Virus record (IMG/VR): IMGVR_UViG_3300009061_000331
Coordinates: 1-18,093 of that record
Length of the DNA stretch: 18,093 bases
Source: a virus
Reading direction: 5' to 3' (one strand)
Position 1 is the stretch's first letter; every line of letters starts with the position of its first letter. The notes under the pieces were generated by a model. The model had not been told where the DNA came from, did no database searches, and was given only the letters and a program-made list of their open reading frames with translations. Positions 124 through 18,093 of the stretch are shown piece by piece. Position numbers and translations under genes: made by a program.

Positions 124-480
124 TAATAATAATAATAAATTACTGAATATGTGGATATGAAACCCTCTACTACCTGTTGAATAACAATTATAACTTATAC
201 CTTCATTTTTTAAACTAATACAAACTGTATTAACTCGTTCTTTTAATTGTTCAAATGTTTCGTTATTAAAAGGGTCAAAGTCTAAAACTATTTCATTTTT
301 TAATAATGTTCTATGTGTTGCTTTATCTAGTTCTTCTTCTGTTGCGTTTAAATAATAAACCCATTTAGTGAAACCTTTAGAGCCGTCTGATTTAATATAA
401 TTAGTAAATATTCTAAAATTGGTCTGTTGCTTGCCTATGAAATAATACAATTCTCCAAGTATCCTATTAGTTTTATTCAT
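1..480 (-). CDS. Compact archaeo-eukaryotic primase (AEP)/PrimPol-type protein, ~167 aa. Codons 1-160 are here; the last 7 codons and the stop lie at 17970-17947 across the circular join.
   Basis: Not in the supplied ORF track because it runs off the window edge. Hand translation from ATG 480-478: MNKTNRILGELYYFIGKQQTNFRIFTNYIKSDGSKGFTKWVYYLNATEEELDKATHRTLLKNEIVLDFDPFNNETFEQLKERVNTVCISLKNEGISYNCYSTGSRGFHIHIFSNLLLLLSKEERIEFRNKFINYYKAESQKNTENVPIALECVPHWKSGK, then NKTRCYF-stop after the join. AEP-like motifs: VLDFD (motif I, DxD), STGSRGFHIHIF (motif II, sGxGxH), VPHWKSGK (motif III-like). The ATG overlaps the TGA of the upstream RHH gene (ATGA). Confidence 0.8.
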   Translation of the reverse strand, partial: MNKTNRILGELYYFIGKQQTNFRIFTNYIKSDGSKGFTKWVYYLNATEEELDKATHRTLLKNEIVLDFDPFNNETFEQLKERVNTVCISLKNEGISYNCYSTGSRGFHIHIFSNLLLLLSKEERIEFRNKFINYYKAESQKNTENVPIALECVPHWKSGK

Positions 481-599
481 TTTTGTTTTGCTATTAATAG
501 TAATCTTTTTATTAAATCATCAAATGTTTCACTTTTCTTTCCAAACTCTAAAAGATCAGTATGTGTTTCAATAGATATTTTTATTATTTTTTCACTCAT
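477..599 (-). CDS. Small ribbon-helix-helix (CopG/Arc-like) DNA-binding protein, 40 aa; first gene of the leftward replication operon.
   Basis: Hand translation: MSEKIIKISIETHTDLLEFGKKSETFDDLIKRLLLIAKQK. It has a short N-terminal beta-strand segment followed by two helix-like segments, typical RHH size. GAGGT lies 8 nt upstream of the ATG. Its stop overlaps the PrimPol start. Confidence 0.55.
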   Translation of the reverse strand: MSEKIIKISIETHTDLLEFGKKSETFDDLIKRLLLIAKQK

Positions 600-647: not shown

Positions 648-655
648 TATATAAA
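648..655 (-). promoter_or_regulatory. Archaeal-type TATA box (TTTATATA on the minus strand) for the leftward RHH-PrimPol-helicase operon.
   Basis: Plus strand reads tatataaa at 648-655, preceded on the minus strand by the A-rich tract ACAAAAAC. It sits ~50 nt upstream of ATG 599, with the GAGGT SD between them. Confidence 0.4.
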
Positions 656-677
656 GTTTTTGTTTTTTTTGTCTTCT

Positions 678-717: not shown

Positions 718-819
718 TTGCCACCCTATCCAGCTTTTCCACCGTAAAATACCCTAAGGCGGAGCGTTGACCCTCTCCTATAGGTAAAAACAGGGTGGTT
801 ATGTTGGATAGGGTGGCAA
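718..819. other. GC-rich long hairpin: 17-bp stem (718-734 pairs with 803-819, one G-T pair) enclosing 68 nt. Candidate replication origin or structured RNA.
   Basis: TTGCCACCCTATCCAGC and GTTGGATAGGGTGGCAA are reverse complements. My count is 50 G+C in 102 nt (~49%) against a much more AT-rich background. The heptamer CCACCCT/AGGGTGG occurs at 721-727, 792-798 and 810-816. Inner pairings are possible: GGAG 761-764 with CTCC 775-778, and ACCCT 751-755 with AGGGT 792-796. Confidence 0.5.
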
Positions 820-845
820 CGGTAATGTTTATGAAAGCTTATTTT

Positions 846-876
846 TTGACTAAAAACTTCAAAAAAATATATAAAT
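846..876 (+). promoter_or_regulatory. Promoter for the rightward (structural) operon.
   Basis: An A-rich tract plus ATATATAAAT (867-876) lies ~40-50 nt upstream of ATG 916, with the SD AGGGTGAT at 901-908. The same DNA also reads as TTGACT(846-851)-N18-TATAAA. Confidence 0.45.
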
Positions 877-1758: not shown

Positions 1759-4700
1759 ATGGTCAGTGAACAATATAAAGCTTATTTAAAGACGGATAGA
1801 GGAAAAACAGCACAGAAAGCTAAGATCGAACATTTAGAACGTGGTAAAAAACAAGCTAAGAGTAAATCTTCTAAGAAAAGAATACAAAAAAAAATAGATG
1901 AAGAAAAAAGATTAAAAAAAGAAGTTACACCTATTACTCCTAAATCTTATATTGTTGATGGTAAAAAAGTTAGTAAGGCTCAGTATGAGCAAAGCGTTAT
2001 TGATAAGTCTAAGAAACTTAAAGAGGGTGAGAAACTTGTAGCTAAAACTACTATGTATAATAGACAATATCAAAAAAAAGAACAACCTAAAACTGTTAAA
2101 GGTGTTGATGTAAAAAAAGAACAACCTAGGACATGGCAAGAAACAGAAGATTTTAAACAAAAAAAAGAAACATGGCAAGAATATTACGATCGTAAATATA
2201 AATTAAAAAACAAACCTACCCAGACTTTACAACCTATTATCAATAACAAGGGGCAAATTATAGGATATAAAGACACTTCTACTAAAAAAAGTGTTTTAAT
2301 ACCTAAAGGAAAAGAAGTTACAGAATCGGCTTTATTAAAAGTTGATAAAAGTAGAGCTGTTAGTAAAGAAATAGAGAAAAAAAACAAACAAACTGATAAA
2401 ATAAAAAATTTAACAAGTTCTGTTACTATTCCAACCCAAAAAGGTAATTTTATGTTTTATCCAGGGTATTTTAGAGATTACCAAAATTTCGCTAATAAAA
2501 AAATTCAACAATCTAAATCTATTCTAGTTAAATCTTTATTTGGTGCTTCTAAATTAGTAATAGGTGTTGCAGAGCCGATTCTAGATACACCATATTATGC
2601 TACAAAATTAATTACTACTACTGGCAAGAATATTATTCCAATACTATCAGATCTAAAAAAAGAAGGATCCAGATTTATAACTTTATCTAATAAAAAAGAT
2701 GATAGTTTTAGTTTAAGCATTTCAAAAGCACTAAAAGATAAGAAAAATGTAAAATCTGTAAAAAATATAATAAGTAATAAAGTTTCAGATACAGTTTTAA
2801 CAACTTCTATTTTAGCAGGTGATTTTTCAAGAGATGTAAAAAAATCTTTTCAAGAAGATCCTTTATATGCTGGTGGGTTTACTACTGGATTATTATATGG
2901 TGGTAAGATTCTTAACAGTGCCAGTGAATTTTTTTCTAAAACAATCGTAAGTACACAGTCTAAATTAGATAAAATGTTACCTTCAAGACCCTATTATGTT
3001 GAAAAATTACCAGAAGGTTTTGAAGTTCATAAAGGAGAATTTGTTCAAGATTTATTAAAATATAAAGGTGAATCTTTTGAACGTGGAGGAAAAGTATTTG
3101 GGGTTAGAAGGGTACAAGAATTTGAACCTAAAAAACTATTACAAGATCCTTTAGAACAAAGTTCAGCCTTTATTGATAAATTAAAAGGTAAAAAACCAGG
3201 TCAAATAAAATATTTTGATTCTGTAGGTCAAGACATTTTATTAAGGGATGTTCCCAGTGAATTTGCAACACCTAAAACAGAGTTATTAATACCAAATCAA
3301 GGAACACAAACTGTTGCAAGTGTTACCCCAGATAGTAAATTCTTAGTAGAAGGATCTAAAAAGGGTGGATATACCAGTATAAGTGGAGGTGGTCAAGAAT
3401 TAGAAACTATTCAAGGTAGAGCTGGTGTTGGTGGTGGAGAATTAGGACAGTTTTTTAGCGTCCCAACAAGTAAAGATATAGCAGGAGTTAAGAAAGGAAC
3501 TCCTCAAGTTTATACTTATTATAGTGGGGTTACAGGTTCAAGTGACTATACAGAAAAACTTCCTTTAAAATTTACTTTAAAGAAACCTAAACCAGGAGTA
3601 ATTTTCCAACAAGAGAATATTAATGTTCCTATAACAACAAAAAAAGGTTATGAGGAATTAGCTCAAGATTTAGCAGGTTATACTGAACCTAGTACTTTTC
3701 AATTAAGTGCTTCAACTATTAAAGGTGTAAGATCAGAGTTAGAAGTTATCAAAAGTCCTCAGACTTATACAACCTTAACAAAAACAACAGATATAAACGT
3801 ACCAGGATATTCTAAAGGTTTTAATATATTTTATGGTAGGAATGTACCTTTAACAAAAAAAGGTTACCATGAAGCTTTAGATGCTAACATTAAATTTTTA
3901 GAAAATCGTATAACTGAAGTTAAAAATATTATTAAGACTTCACCAGAACTTGAAAGTAAAGGTAATATTATAATTAAACGTGAATTAAGAAATATTGAAA
4001 ATATTAAATTGGCTCAACAAGGTAAAAAATACAAAAATGTTCCTAATTTAGATTCATCAAGTAAAGAGGCATATAATAAGTTTGAGGATTTAGGCTTAAG
4101 TCCACAAAATTCACCAAGTTATAATTATGTGACACCTAGTGATTTAATTAGTAGTAATAAACCCATTATTAGTGGTGTAGCTATTACTGTTTCAAAATTA
4201 TCAGCAGATAAAGAAGAAGTTATTTTTAGCGATTCAAGTAGTAGTCCTAGTACTAAACCAAGTAGTAGTCCTAGTATTAAACCAAGTAGTAGTAATAATA
4301 ATAATTTAAATATTTCTTCTATTAGTTCTAATATTATTTCTAGTAAAGTTATTAGTACTAAATCAAGTAGTAGTCCTAGTACTAAACCAAGTAGTAGTCC
4401 TAGTATTAAACCAAGTAGTAGTCCTAGTATTAAACCAAGTAGTAGTCCTAGTATTAAACCAAGTAGTAGTTCTAGTATTATTCCTAGTATAATTGAAAGT
4501 CAGATACCTCGTGCGTCATTATTTCCACCATTTAAGAAAAGTAATAATAAATTTTCCACTGGTTTTGGTGTTGAAGTTCGTAAGAAAGGTAAGTTTAGAC
4601 CTATTTTTGGGTCATTTCGTACAAAAAAAGAAGCTACTAGATTCGGTATGTTTAAAGTTGGTACAACTGCACGTGCAAGTTTTAGAGTAGTTGATAAGAA

Positions 4701-4875
4701 AACTGGTATTAGAAGAAAATTTAGAGGATCAGGTAAACCTTTAGATTTTTATAAAAAAGGTAATGTTTTCATAGAGAAACGTGGTCGTCGTATTAAAAGT
4801 CGTGGTGAAGTTCGTGAAATTAGTTTAAAAGGTGTAAGAAGTCAAAGAAAAGGGAAAAAGTTTAAAATGTATTAG
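1759..4875 (+). CDS. Large virion-associated-like protein, 1038 aa: Lys-rich N-terminus, central region, Ser/Pro repeat linker, strongly basic C-terminal domain.
   Basis: Long uninterrupted ORF in AT-rich DNA. N-terminal ~230 aa are K/E/Q-rich. SSSPS[T/I]KP repeats span roughly residues 826-909. The C-terminal ~120 aa are R/K-rich (RKKGKFRPIFGSFRTKKEATRFG...KRGRRIKSRGEVREISLKGVRSQRKGKKFKMY). I recognise no family. Confidence 0.75.
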   Translation: MVSEQYKAYLKTDRGKTAQKAKIEHLERGKKQAKSKSSKKRIQKKIDEEKRLKKEVTPITPKSYIVDGKKVSKAQYEQSVIDKSKKLKEGEKLVAKTTMYNRQYQKKEQPKTVKGVDVKKEQPRTWQETEDFKQKKETWQEYYDRKYKLKNKPTQTLQPIINNKGQIIGYKDTSTKKSVLIPKGKEVTESALLKVDKSRAVSKEIEKKNKQTDKIKNLTSSVTIPTQKGNFMFYPGYFRDYQNFANKKIQQSKSILVKSLFGASKLVIGVAEPILDTPYYATKLITTTGKNIIPILSDLKKEGSRFITLSNKKDDSFSLSISKALKDKKNVKSVKNIISNKVSDTVLTTSILAGDFSRDVKKSFQEDPLYAGGFTTGLLYGGKILNSASEFFSKTIVSTQSKLDKMLPSRPYYVEKLPEGFEVHKGEFVQDLLKYKGESFERGGKVFGVRRVQEFEPKKLLQDPLEQSSAFIDKLKGKKPGQIKYFDSVGQDILLRDVPSEFATPKTELLIPNQGTQTVASVTPDSKFLVEGSKKGGYTSISGGGQELETIQGRAGVGGGELGQFFSVPTSKDIAGVKKGTPQVYTYYSGVTGSSDYTEKLPLKFTLKKPKPGVIFQQENINVPITTKKGYEELAQDLAGYTEPSTFQLSASTIKGVRSELEVIKSPQTYTTLTKTTDINVPGYSKGFNIFYGRNVPLTKKGYHEALDANIKFLENRITEVKNIIKTSPELESKGNIIIKRELRNIENIKLAQQGKKYKNVPNLDSSSKEAYNKFEDLGLSPQNSPSYNYVTPSDLISSNKPIISGVAITVSKLSADKEEVIFSDSSSSPSTKPSSSPSIKPSSSNNNNLNISSISSNIISSKVISTKSSSSPSTKPSSSPSIKPSSSPSIKPSSSPSIKPSSSSSIIPSIIESQIPRASLFPPFKKSNNKFSTGFGVEVRKKGKFRPIFGSFRTKKEATRFGMFKVGTTARASFRVVDKKTGIRRKFRGSGKPLDFYKKGNVFIEKRGRRIKSRGEVREISLKGVRSQRKGKKFKMY
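4234..4485 (+). repeat. In-frame 24-nt tandem repeats (AGTAGTAGTCCTAGTAYTAAACCA, encoding SSSPS[T/I]KP) in two blocks, 4237-4293 and 4366-4485.
   Basis: Units are identical at nucleotide level. The 60-nt segment 4234-4293 recurs exactly at 4363-4422. The last unit (4462-4485) is degenerate. Confidence 0.9.
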
Positions 4876-9320: not shown

Positions 9321-9419
9321 TTGAAAGAAATATGTAAGAAAATCAATACTAAAGATATAGGTAAAGAAGAAATTAGAGTAGGTAAAACTAAGAAAATTAA
9401 GAGTCCTAAGGCTCTTTAA
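9321..9419 (+). CDS. Small basic protein, 32 aa, TTG start (MKEICKKINTKDIGKEEIRVGKTKKIKSPKAL).
   Basis: GGGGGGTGA (9307-9315) then 5 nt then TTG 9321, the same geometry as at 8565. Not in the ORF track because it is too short. Confidence 0.35.
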   Translation: MKEICKKINTKDIGKEEIRVGKTKKIKSPKAL

Positions 9420-10325: not shown

Positions 10326-10451
10326 TTATTGAGACCCCCCTTTTTTATTATTATTTTGATTTATTTTCTGAATAACAAAACCGATTATCATACCAGCCAT
10401 TAAAGTTAAACAATATGTAGTTCCAATTATTGCCCATATATATGAATTCAT
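10326..10451 (-). CDS. Small single-TM protein, 41 aa (MNSYIWAIIGTTYCLTLMAGMIIGFVIQKINQNNNKKGGSQ).
   Basis: Hand translation. Its ATG overlaps the recombinase TGA (ATGA at 10451-10448). Confidence 0.4.
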   Translation of the reverse strand: MNSYIWAIIGTTYCLTLMAGMIIGFVIQKINQNNNKKGGSQ

Positions 10452-10930
10452 TTTCTTAGTGTACCTCTACTTTTTCTTTGAACTTTATCTTTACCACGTT
10501 TACCAACATTCTTAGCAAACCTTAAACCCTCTTTTGTTCTCTCACTAATGATTGATCTTTCGTATTCGGCAAATGCTCCTAAGATCTGCCATTGTAAACG
10601 GCCTATACTAGAAGATGTATCTATGTTTTGGGTTACTGCAACAAATTCAACATTCTTATTTCTAAATTCATCTAACAAACTAATCAGATGTTTTAATGAT
10701 CTTCCCATACGATCAAGTTTAGTAACAACGACCATTCTAAATTTATAATGTCTTAAATCTCTCAAAAGCTCATTAAACATTGGCCTAGACACTTTAGCCC
10801 CGCTTATTACATCAGAATAGACTTTGTAAATTTCCCATCCTTGACTCTCACAATAATCTCTGCAAATCTTTTCCTGTTTTCTTTCATCTTGATCAGCTGT
10901 TGAAACTCTACAATAAATAGCAACTTTCAT
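10448..10930 (-). CDS. Small serine recombinase (resolvase/invertase catalytic domain), 160 aa, without a C-terminal HTH domain.
   Basis: MKVAIYCRVSTADQ (catalytic Ser motif), VVTKLDRMGRS, and the E-helix LGAFAEYERSIISERTKEGL. The protein ends in a short basic tail, GKRGKDKVQRKSRGTLRK. Confidence 0.9.
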   Translation of the reverse strand: MKVAIYCRVSTADQDERKQEKICRDYCESQGWEIYKVYSDVISGAKVSRPMFNELLRDLRHYKFRMVVVTKLDRMGRSLKHLISLLDEFRNKNVEFVAVTQNIDTSSSIGRLQWQILGAFAEYERSIISERTKEGLRFAKNVGKRGKDKVQRKSRGTLRK

Positions 10931-16453: not shown

Positions 16454-17950
16454 TCACCTATAATTATTCATACTAAGATCTCCGACCTCTATATATTTAC
16501 TAAGATTATCATCATCTAAAGATCCTTTTATGAATTCCATGTTTAACCAACAATGCTCTTGGCTCTTAGAATCAAACCCAATATTAATATTAACCCTTTT
16601 ACTTAATATACCTTTAGTCTGTAAAAACTTAAGTATATCTCTATCGCTAACAATATCTAAAGCTCTATGGTCACAAAACTCTGAGTAAAGTGTTCTAACA
16701 TCGCTTTTAATACATTTACAATTCTTACTAAACTTTAAGTATTCATCAAAGAAAACAATAAAGCTATTAGAATCTCTTAACCATTCATTTCTAGTCTCTT
16801 CGGTTGTTTTCTCATTGCTAAACTTTTTATTCTTAAACAATCTATCTAAACCATCTAAAGACCAATTTAGCAACCCACTCATTTCAATTGGATTATTTAA
16901 TTTTTCGATAATATTAATAATTCTAATACCATATCTATCTTTACTCTTATCATCAATATTATTATAAATATCTTTACTTACAAATGTTTTATTAAAATTT
17001 AAAACATTCCATCTTCTAAAAAATCCATCAGTAATGTCATAAGTAGGTGGTCTGTCATTACAATTAAAAATTAGTTTAGCATGGTTAGTAAATTGAATAC
17101 TGGTCTTAAATTTACGACTAGCATTAATAGTATCACGACCTGTTAGTTCTTTAAACCTATCAGTATTAACAATAGCACTTTTAGATAACTCACCAGTTAA
17201 ATTAGCAAATTTCCCATGCAAATTAACAATCTCAAAACTGTCATGTTTCTCTAATACCTTATATGTAATATTGCTAACATTATCACAACCTAAAAAAAGT
17301 TCTATTAATTCAAGAGTTTTACTTTTACCATTACTACCATTACCTCTAAATAAAAAAGCTTTCTCTAAGAAATTATCACGATAAAGACAATATCCTATAA
17401 GCTCCTGCATACCTTTAACATCGGTATCATTTAAAGTGTTAGAAAAAAAAGACTTAATCTTTTTACAATCAGTAACATTATTATAATTAGCATTAAGTTT
17501 AGTGAAAAATATTTTTTTATGACTAAATTTTTCTAATTTACGAGTTTTAACATTTAATATACCGTTTAATACACAAATCTCATCCTTATTATAATTATTA
17601 AAGAATTTATCATGATCTATATAATTGTCAGCAATAACTTTATTTATTACTTGATTAACAATATAAGCACTATAAGCGTCTTTTAATAATCGACGAGTTA
17701 CTTCTTTAATATAACTTTTACCATTTGGGATATATATACCATTTTTATACATCCATATTTCCTCTTTATCATCATCACGAATACTATAAAAATAATTAAA
17801 GGTATCTAAATAAATTACTAGTTCCTCACTTACTTTATCATAATCTTTTTGTAATATTAATCTAACAGCTCTATCTTCAATTTCTTTCTCTTCCTTCTTT
17901 ATAGCTTGTAAAAAATCAGTATTTATATTTTTATTTATATCAGTAATCAA
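16454..17950 (-). CDS. D5/P4-family superfamily-3 replicative helicase (phage/plasmid primase C-terminal type), ~498 aa.
   Basis: Walker A context: AFLFRGNGSNGKSKTLELIELFLG. Also LIFNCNDRP and GFFRRWNVLNFNKTF, typical of D5-like helicases. The probable start, TTG 17950, lies 6 nt after GAGGTG and overlaps the PrimPol stop (TTGA). The track start, GTG 17959, lies inside the SD. Confidence 0.85.
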   Translation of the reverse strand: MITDINKNINTDFLQAIKKEEKEIEDRAVRLILQKDYDKVSEELVIYLDTFNYFYSIRDDDKEEIWMYKNGIYIPNGKSYIKEVTRRLLKDAYSAYIVNQVINKVIADNYIDHDKFFNNYNKDEICVLNGILNVKTRKLEKFSHKKIFFTKLNANYNNVTDCKKIKSFFSNTLNDTDVKGMQELIGYCLYRDNFLEKAFLFRGNGSNGKSKTLELIELFLGCDNVSNITYKVLEKHDSFEIVNLHGKFANLTGELSKSAIVNTDRFKELTGRDTINASRKFKTSIQFTNHAKLIFNCNDRPPTYDITDGFFRRWNVLNFNKTFVSKDIYNNIDDKSKDRYGIRIINIIEKLNNPIEMSGLLNWSLDGLDRLFKNKKFSNEKTTEETRNEWLRDSNSFIVFFDEYLKFSKNCKCIKSDVRTLYSEFCDHRALDIVSDRDILKFLQTKGILSKRVNINIGFDSKSQEHCWLNMEFIKGSLDDDNLSKYIEVGDLSMNNYR

Positions 17951-18093
17951 AAATAACACCTCGTCTTATTCTTGCCACTTTTCCAATGTGGCACACATTC
18001 TAAAGCAATCGGGACATTTTCAGTATTTTTCTGGGATTCGGCTTTATAATAATTAATAAATTTATTTCTGAATTCTATTCTTTCTTCTTTTGA
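17947..18093 (-). CDS. 3' end of the PrimPol gene: 17971-18093 duplicates 1-123, and the unique last 7 codons + TGA lie at 17970-17947.
   Basis: The reading frame continues from position 1 across the join: AAT AAG ACG AGG TGT TAT TTT TGA. Confidence 0.8.
   Translation of the reverse strand, partial: SKEERIEFRNKFINYYKAESQKNTENVPIALECVPHWKSGKNKTRCYF
17971..18093. repeat. Terminal redundancy, copy 2 (identical to 1-123).
   Basis: 123/123 identity with the window start. Confidence 0.95.

Follow-up and report, generated by a model that had tools for sequence, protein, structure and literature searches.

Among archaeal replicons, the Sulfolobales plasmid pRN1 carries a stem-loop of ~100 nt that is essential for replication, whose integrity is required and which is functional when moved (PMC4234260, PMC3869888). 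Throughout the pRN plasmids this stem-loop keeps its structure and its flanks but is poorly conserved in sequence (PMC4234260, PMC3869888), and it lies downstream of the rep gene and acts independently of its position (PMC4234260). Specific binding of ORF904 to the pRN1 stem-loop could not be demonstrated in vitro (PMC4234260), and the authors of that work described their origin as being without iteron structure. Origins of archaeal prim-pol/SF3-helicase replicons are almost unmapped, pRN1 being the main experimental case, and its recognition is unsolved. SF3 helicases also act at the core origins of polyomaviruses and papillomaviruses (SV40 large T antigen site II and the E1 site), where double hexamers assemble on inverted short repeats with dyad symmetry. 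As for the bacterial SaPI elements, their Rep proteins are self-loading SF3 helicases with a C-terminal winged-helix domain that binds iterons, and their origin possesses at least two iterons per side, in opposed sets around a central region, for which two hexamers have been proposed (PMC9371898).

The DNA analysed here, called the window, is the whole 18,093-nt stretch of the IMG/VR virus record IMGVR_UViG_3300009061_000331. Its positions 1-123 are identical to 17971-18093 (123 bp), and this terminal identity indicates a circular (or terminally redundant) genome of ~17,970 bp, with the prim-pol ORF crossing the junction. Considering its folds and its equivalents in relatives, the hairpin/cruciform element at 718-819, to which no strand is assigned, is a candidate replication origin. 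On comparative sequence grounds, we regard it as reasonably likely that this element is the cis-acting, helicase-loading origin of a circular archaeal virus or plasmid of ~17.97 kb, acting as double-stranded DNA. The original prediction had proposed an origin role by analogy with pRN1, and comparative evidence now supports it, through a helicase homologous to ORF904, the linkage between hairpin and operon, and a length, periodic arms and a motif resembling those of the pRN plasmids.

As seen by direct reading, the 102-bp quasi-palindrome at 718-819 forms a 17-bp stem between a 5' arm at 718-734 (TTGCCACCCTATCCAGC) and a 3' arm at 803-819 (GTTGGATAGGGTGGCAA), with a single G733-T804 wobble and 68 nt enclosed (735-802), which is the stem first described from the sequence. 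Its G+C content of 0.49, against ~0.27 for the genome and 0.21-0.33 for the flanks, agrees with the ~49% island originally noticed in this AT-rich genome. The repeated heptamer CCACCCT/AGGGTGG was equally borne out, being found within the hairpin at 721-727 (plus strand), 792-798 and 810-816 (both minus strand). The hairpin thereby accounts for three out of five copies counted over the whole window, against an expectation of 0.67. Refolding of 700-860 as RNA gave very stable structures on both strands (-54.5 kcal/mol, z -6.3, on the plus strand; -51.9 kcal/mol, z -5.2, on the minus strand), and 718-819 folded as DNA reached -23 and -24 kcal/mol on the two strands (z -4.6 and -5.3). Among 120-nt segments taken along the whole window, the hairpin folded most strongly (-53), and the next unrelated segment reached only -31.4.

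The gene layout places the element between divergent operons and beside the primase-helicase operon, as had been claimed. The replication operon is read on the minus strand and encodes an RHH-like protein, then the prim-pol, then the helicase, while the plus-strand genes start at 916. Its first gene (477-599, minus strand) specifies a 40-aa RHH-like protein with a weak DUF7557 match (E 8e-4, below the Pfam cut-off), and is followed by the archaeo-eukaryotic (AEP) prim-pol (480-1, wrapping to 17970-17947, minus strand), whose matches to LigD_Prim-Pol and DNA_primase_S are weak and below cut-off, and by the SF3 helicase of the D5/P4-alpha/ORF904 type (16454-17959, minus strand), with DUF5906 and D5_N and a predicted C-terminal winged-helix-like domain. 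The database copy of this helicase begins three residues later than the ORF translation. Residues 399-476 are predicted as helix-strand-helix-helix-strand-strand with pLDDT ~78-91, and it is from this order of helices and strands that the winged-helix-like domain is predicted; the model is poor in the ATPase core, with pLDDT below 50 at 197-320. Regarding the first gene of the operon, it is RHH/DUF7557-like in the window, L003 (6378-6512) and L034 and is different in L001 (9368-9514), L005 (1162-1305), L012, L015 and L016, with the promoter region unchanged. The replacement small protein looks AbrB-like by eye and has no Pfam match to the AbrB family.

Every gene points away from the hairpin, and the two sets meet at ~9.4 kb, nearly opposite on the circle. 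The cumulative GC skew, which the original prediction had put forward as a way to locate the origin, is V-shaped, lowest near 700 and highest near 9400. Both signals agree with replication outward from the hairpin, and both are confounded with transcription direction. Rightward from 916, the genome encodes small membrane proteins and two proteins of ~1,050 aa. The first gene of this rightward operon (916-1107) specifies a 63-aa protein with two hydrophobic helices and no significant Pfam match, which we take to resemble the small major capsid proteins of spindle-shaped archaeal viruses. Another product, of 1038 aa (1759-4875), has a serine/proline-rich tandem repeat (SSSPSIKP/SSSPSTKP) at ~4200-4500 and a very basic C-terminus.

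The helicases used for comparison are 81, 76 and 76% identical for the three nearest relatives, around 50% for a further group and 23-41% for an IMG/VR set. Relatives of at least ~50% identity possess, wherever the upstream region was recovered, one hairpin of 87-113 bp (mostly 96-108) directly before the replication operon; L030 was left unscored, as its contig ends before the intergenic region. For the 11 distant IMG/VR loci, the top folds were inspected in four, revealing an equivalent hairpin in L021, L023 and L029 (36-37% identity) and, in L019, a top fold different from the window type. At its locus the hairpin mostly ranks first or close to first in fold strength, and its linkage to the replication operon persists in L018 and L034, which have other genes on the far side. 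Searches of IMG/VR with the exact arm and with the conserved flank returned no matches, nor did a single-protein search of IMG/VR for related loci, and the phage records searched by blastn with 600-920 yielded nothing beyond short A+T-rich chance matches.

Both sides of the element contain tandem repeats of 9 bp. The left array (718-744, plus strand) consists of TTGCCACCC (718-726), TATCCAGCT (727-735) and TTTCCACCG (736-744), and the right array (793-819, minus strand) consists of TTGCCACCC (819-811), TATCCAACA (810-802) and TAACCACCC (801-793), the two arrays facing each other and both pointing inward. The lag-9 autocorrelation of the left arm in the window is 0.57, and within the outer 30 nt of both arms in 12 lineages the mean lag-9 identity is 0.54, compared to 0.27 +/- 0.019 after shuffling, no other lag there rising above ~0.30. 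Every lineage stacked has two to three tandem 9-bp repeats per arm, directed inward. Meanwhile, no relation is seen between the arm sequences of different lineages (window TTGCCACCCTATCCA, L001 AATCAAGGCAAGCAAGG, L003 and L005 CTAGGGTATCTA), and the repeat types differ too, for example TATCCA in the window and CTAGGGTA in L003.

Complementarity is nevertheless kept despite this divergence, as RNAalifold recovers 14 outer pairs with double-sided changes in 11 of them, so that the compensatory changes sought in relatives are present. Where the arms do mismatch, the mismatches sit in the 3-nt spacer between repeat cores (GGG vs GGG in L016, CCC vs CCC in L015, CCC vs CGT in L018), and L032 has an extra (third) inverted repeat pair with non-complementary spacers between. 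G-T and A-C mismatches in the arms present no consistent strand bias. Non-complementary spacers together with a 9-bp periodicity are unexpected for an RNA helix and point to arrays of protein-binding sites in mirror arrangement; the element is thus probably DNA rather than RNA. As a separate observation, helicases that are 81-82% identical accompany arms that are either identical (L003/L005) or wholly different (window/L001), and the most divergent patch between the helicase C-termini of the window and L001 is the predicted wing (NINIGFDSKS vs WTTFDLDNKV). The arm switch and the wing divergence between these two lineages could represent switches in repeat specificity.

Between the arrays lies a central core of 48 bp (745-792, no strand assigned), seen in the folds and alignable to the cores of relatives, with an imperfect stem-loop of its own (~753-784) and ~44% G+C by our own count, which is high for a genome of ~27%. 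The cores of relatives are alignable once their orientation is normalised, and they have in common a run of T behind the 5' arm, a palindrome resembling CC(C)TATAGG and, in the 3' half on the helicase-sense strand, a G-run followed by an A-run. The window version of this last motif is ACGGTGGAAAAG (734-745, minus strand, helicase-sense), which includes a GTG and shares positions with the third left-array repeat; the copy GGTGGAAAAG is one G short of the strict pattern. At the equivalent position, L015 and L012 have GGGTGGAAAAG, L018 has GGGGGTTAAAA and L016 has GGGGGCAAAAA, and L034, L023 and L004 are further carriers; in pRN2, pSSVx and pDL10 it is GGGGTAAAAA, at position 62-67 on the rep-sense strand. 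The pattern matches 10 of 18 elements, always on the rep-sense strand and at position 62-77, with a background of 0.36 per strand-kb, and it is absent from the stem-loops of pRN1 and pHEN7.

The orientation of the core differs between sister lineages. In L005-L008 (four samples) ~70 bp of core are inverted relative to L003/L004, with identical arms and flanks, helicases being 82% identical between the two lineages; the cores align with scores of 83-93 as reverse complement and of 43-49 in the same orientation, and an 18-nt stretch of L004, CTAGGGTGTATTCACTCA, is the exact reverse complement of a stretch in L005. All other lineages share the same core orientation, and each sampled population shows one orientation only. 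Because the arms are symmetric, flipping the core equals flipping the whole element, which would be tolerable for an autonomous DNA origin and not for an RNA transcribed from an outside promoter. The two halves of the window element are near mirror images, so that its core orientation can be called by the G-run motif only; a C-rich 5' motif gave the wrong orientation there. The elements of L003 (6160-6255) and L004 (1757-1852), apparently from the same sample and with ~330 bp of otherwise identical intergenic DNA, present four differences within 10 nt of the hairpin core (CTATGGTATAATCAC vs CTAGGGTGTATTCAC), a clustered change that looks like template switching in a quasi-palindrome.

An A+T-rich flank adjoins the element at 676-713 (no strand assigned), of which 676-705 is identical in the window, L001, L003 and L005 except for one N, the rest to 713 being mostly conserved, and this identity spans four lineages whose helicases are just 76-82% identical. 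The flank contains a perfect palindrome at 678-694, GCTTAAAACTTTTAAGC, also present in L018 and in a Woesearchaeota MAG, and it is a candidate auxiliary origin sequence, unwinding region or operator. The same block holds GCTTAAAAnTTTTAAGC, and these 24 nt recur in the Woesearchaeota MAG (L011, 6501-6524), ~16 nt upstream of the TATA box of a cellular gene and with a second palindrome, GATTAAAAGTTTTAATC, ~110 bp off; the shared 24-nt stretch may be a site for a host transcription factor and, as such, a clue to the host. A match to the same 24 nt in a Gastranaerophilales MAG falls in apparent coding sequence and looks like chance.

The replication operon has an archaeal-type TATA box at 649-656 (minus strand), TTTATATA, preceded by an A-rich BRE-like stretch, and by direct reading (C)GAAAnnTTTATATA is conserved upstream of this operon in all relatives. 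Such a motif follows the established BRE/TATA pattern of archaeal promoters, which indicates that the host is archaeal; scans with bacterial models for sigma-70 promoters and intrinsic terminators were uninformative. The distance from hairpin to TATA box ranges from ~20 to >120 bp across relatives. On the other side of the hairpin, the T6 tract that had been pointed out at 842-847 (plus strand) exists, but it is not conserved, the flank there being unalignable in relatives.

Lying between two promoters, with an RHH-like protein encoded 120 bp away, the hairpin could also be an operator, a regulatory palindrome for the divergent promoters bound by the adjacent small DNA-binding protein; short repeats, tandem or inverted, are common targets of RHH proteins, and ORF56 of pRN1 represses its own operon. 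We consider this rather unlikely, since the RHH proteins of the window and L003 are nearly identical while their arms are unrelated, and the identical arms of L003 and L005 go with different regulators (RHH against the small protein that is AbrB-like by eye). Moreover, the spacing between hairpin and TATA box is variable (~20 to >120 bp), and the homologous stem-loops of the pRN plasmids are downstream of rep and act independently of position (PMC4234260). As regulator type and arm type are uncoupled, the small regulator was also discarded as the arm-binding protein. A structured non-coding RNA transcribed from one strand, such as a copy-control or primer RNA, would suit the very stable predicted fold, the compensatory pair changes, the lone wobble being G-T on the plus strand and the T6 downstream at 842-847. 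It seems quite improbable, because the two strands fold equally well, neither T6 nor the sequence upstream is conserved, transcription from the best plus-side TATA-like sequence (~697-706) would begin inside the 5' arm, and 9-bp periodic arms with non-complementary spacers lack an RNA rationale. Furthermore, with the core inverted and the flanks unchanged in L005-L008, an externally promoted RNA would there be the complement. No family of Rfam 15 was found at gathering thresholds, and the single match of a permissive scan, mir-5681, scored 22.4 bits where the gathering score is 88 and reflects a chance resemblance to the arm sequence. The small structured RNA offered as an alternative in the original prediction is therefore disfavoured, having no Rfam family, conserved promoter or terminator, or strand preference.

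Recombination could also account for arms that are perfect inverted repeats, in a genome that encodes a serine recombinase (10448-10930), and for the ~70-bp core inverted between L003/L004 and L005-L008, the element then being a recombinase target (for dimer resolution or attachment) or a small invertible switch. Yet the recombinase found with this element is of the serine type in the window and L001 and a tyrosine integrase in L003/L004, L012 and L018, so that the recombinase target suggested earlier is disfavoured, and the recombinase gene lies ~9.6 kb from the hairpin. The 68 bp between the arms are also very short for a synapse, given DNA stiffness; one core orientation is found in all other lineages, and no sample has both; the variation of the arms among close relatives is at odds with an att site matching a conserved host gene; and template switching or arm-mediated recombination can invert a palindrome core without a dedicated enzyme. 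This explanation is accordingly held to be very improbable. An invertible promoter switch (inverton) was rejected in view of the variable recombinase type, the distant gene and the single orientation per population, and the hairpin contains no convincing internal TATA box. An attachment site of tRNA type, whose detection would have reassigned the element, found no support either, as ARAGORN reports no tRNA or tmRNA in the whole window and the arms differ between close relatives (76-81% helicase identity). Finally, TTATCCAC in L018 resembles a DnaA box, an assignment rejected on account of the archaeal BRE/TATA promoters and the lineage-specific arms.

The recombinase module itself is exchanged among relatives. 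The window and L001 (17792-18262) encode a serine recombinase of 157-160 aa, with a catalytic domain and a basic tail and no recognisable helix-turn-helix, and L003/L004 (L003 13454-14074), L012 and L018 encode a ~200-aa tyrosine integrase instead. Beside the tyrosine integrase of L018, an intergenic region at ~1265-1365 has dense short direct repeats (ATAAGACAA / TCTCTGACAAA / ATAGGACAA), and this array is a second iteron-like region of L018.

Returning to the replication origin, 718-819 would act as double-stranded DNA, possibly extruded as a cruciform, in which the inward arrays (718-744 and 819-793, three 9-bp repeats each) flank the 48-bp core. The SF3 helicase of the replicon would read the repeats through its predicted C-terminal winged-helix-like domain, as its homologues suggest, with one hexamer probably loading per side and opening the DNA; the separately encoded prim-pol would then prime, and the forks would presumably run both ways. 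Computation establishes the structure, its operon linkage, the repeat architecture, the helicase homology and the resemblances to the pRN plasmids, and from homologues we infer which protein binds the repeats, the double-hexamer loading, where melting starts and the two fork directions. Some features speak against an origin: transcription direction confounds both the GC skew and gene orientation, ORF904 could not be seen to bind the pRN1 stem-loop specifically in vitro, the internal motif is imperfect in the window and missing from pRN1 and pHEN7, and the G+C-rich centre, compared to the A+T-rich one of SaPI, would be a poor unwinding element. In addition, the element is upstream of the rep genes, contrasting with the downstream position in pRN plasmids and SaPIs; since the pRN1 stem-loop works when displaced, a downstream location may not be essential.

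Comparing the element with the pRN set (pRN1, pRN2, pHEN7, pSSVx and pDL10), the helicase is homologous to ORF904 of pRN1, with 32% identity over 274 aa (E 1e-33), and in both groups it is accompanied by a small DNA-binding regulator and an AEP prim-pol. Both also have a single stem-loop of ~100 nt near the replication genes (102 nt in the window), whose structure is kept while its sequence diverges and which adjoins a conserved flank. The stem-loops of pRN1 and pRN2 are the top folds of their plasmids. When the arms of pRN1, pRN2, pHEN7 and pSSVx were read for periodicity, the first three presented two 9-bp repeats per arm (TGTCCAtag TGTCCAact in pRN1, TGTCACcac TGTCACaac in pHEN7, GGACcgata GGACaggaa in pRN2), and pSSVx a weak lag-9 periodicity. 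The 9-bp periodicity of the arms is clear in pRN1, pRN2, pHEN7 and all relatives of the window, and a run of T follows the 5' arm in pRN1, pHEN7 and pSSVx as well. The G-run/A-run motif at ~position 62-70 is approximate in the window and present in three of the five plasmids. Besides these similarities, there are differences: the window element is upstream of the operon, between divergent promoters, and not downstream of rep; its prim-pol and helicase are separate proteins; it has three repeats per arm instead of two; its core is G+C-rich relative to the genome; and its host is an A+T-rich uncultured archaeon, the element also being found with virus-like genes.

A stem-loop origin of pRN type is known, and what is new is the 9-bp repeat architecture and a core motif, both of which recur among the Sulfolobales plasmids. 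As the authors of the pRN1 work saw no iterons, the 9-bp repeats may change the reading of that origin. More tentatively, and as a possibility that we hold to be short of probable, the arm repeats together with the G-run/A-run motif could be an unrecognised recognition code of ORF904/SaPI-Rep-type origins, extending from the Sulfolobales pRN plasmids to this group. If so, the pRN1 stem-loop would be two opposed iteron arrays, lineage-specific repeats would set replicon specificity, and the inverted core of the L005 lineage would record that a cruciform or hairpin had formed in vivo. The natural variants, conserved in their length of ~100 bp and in their core and lineage-specific in their 9-bp arm repeats, suggest that the arms are the recognition sites and that the helicase reads them with its C-terminal domain.

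Regarding the other SF3-helicase origins, the closest solved relative of the window helicase is the PriRep of SaPI5, the family profile matching the SaPI5 primase-helicase 7OLA with E 2e-19 and the Foldseek top matches of the helicase model being 7OLA and 7OM0. The short repeats also lie in two opposed sets in both cases, as three inverted 9-bp repeats per side in the window. The SaPI iterons are nevertheless of 5-6 bp, without a long hairpin, in an origin that is bacterial and just downstream of rep, and their centre is A+T-rich, compared to 49% G+C for the window element and ~44% for its core. Polyomavirus and papillomavirus origins likewise place inverted sets of short repeats around a dyad for an SF3 helicase, but their origin-binding domains are unrelated, their 5-bp GAGGC units have another spacing and they lack a 100-bp hairpin. 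The family described here ties the archaeal stem-loop origins to the bacterial iteron origins of SaPI.
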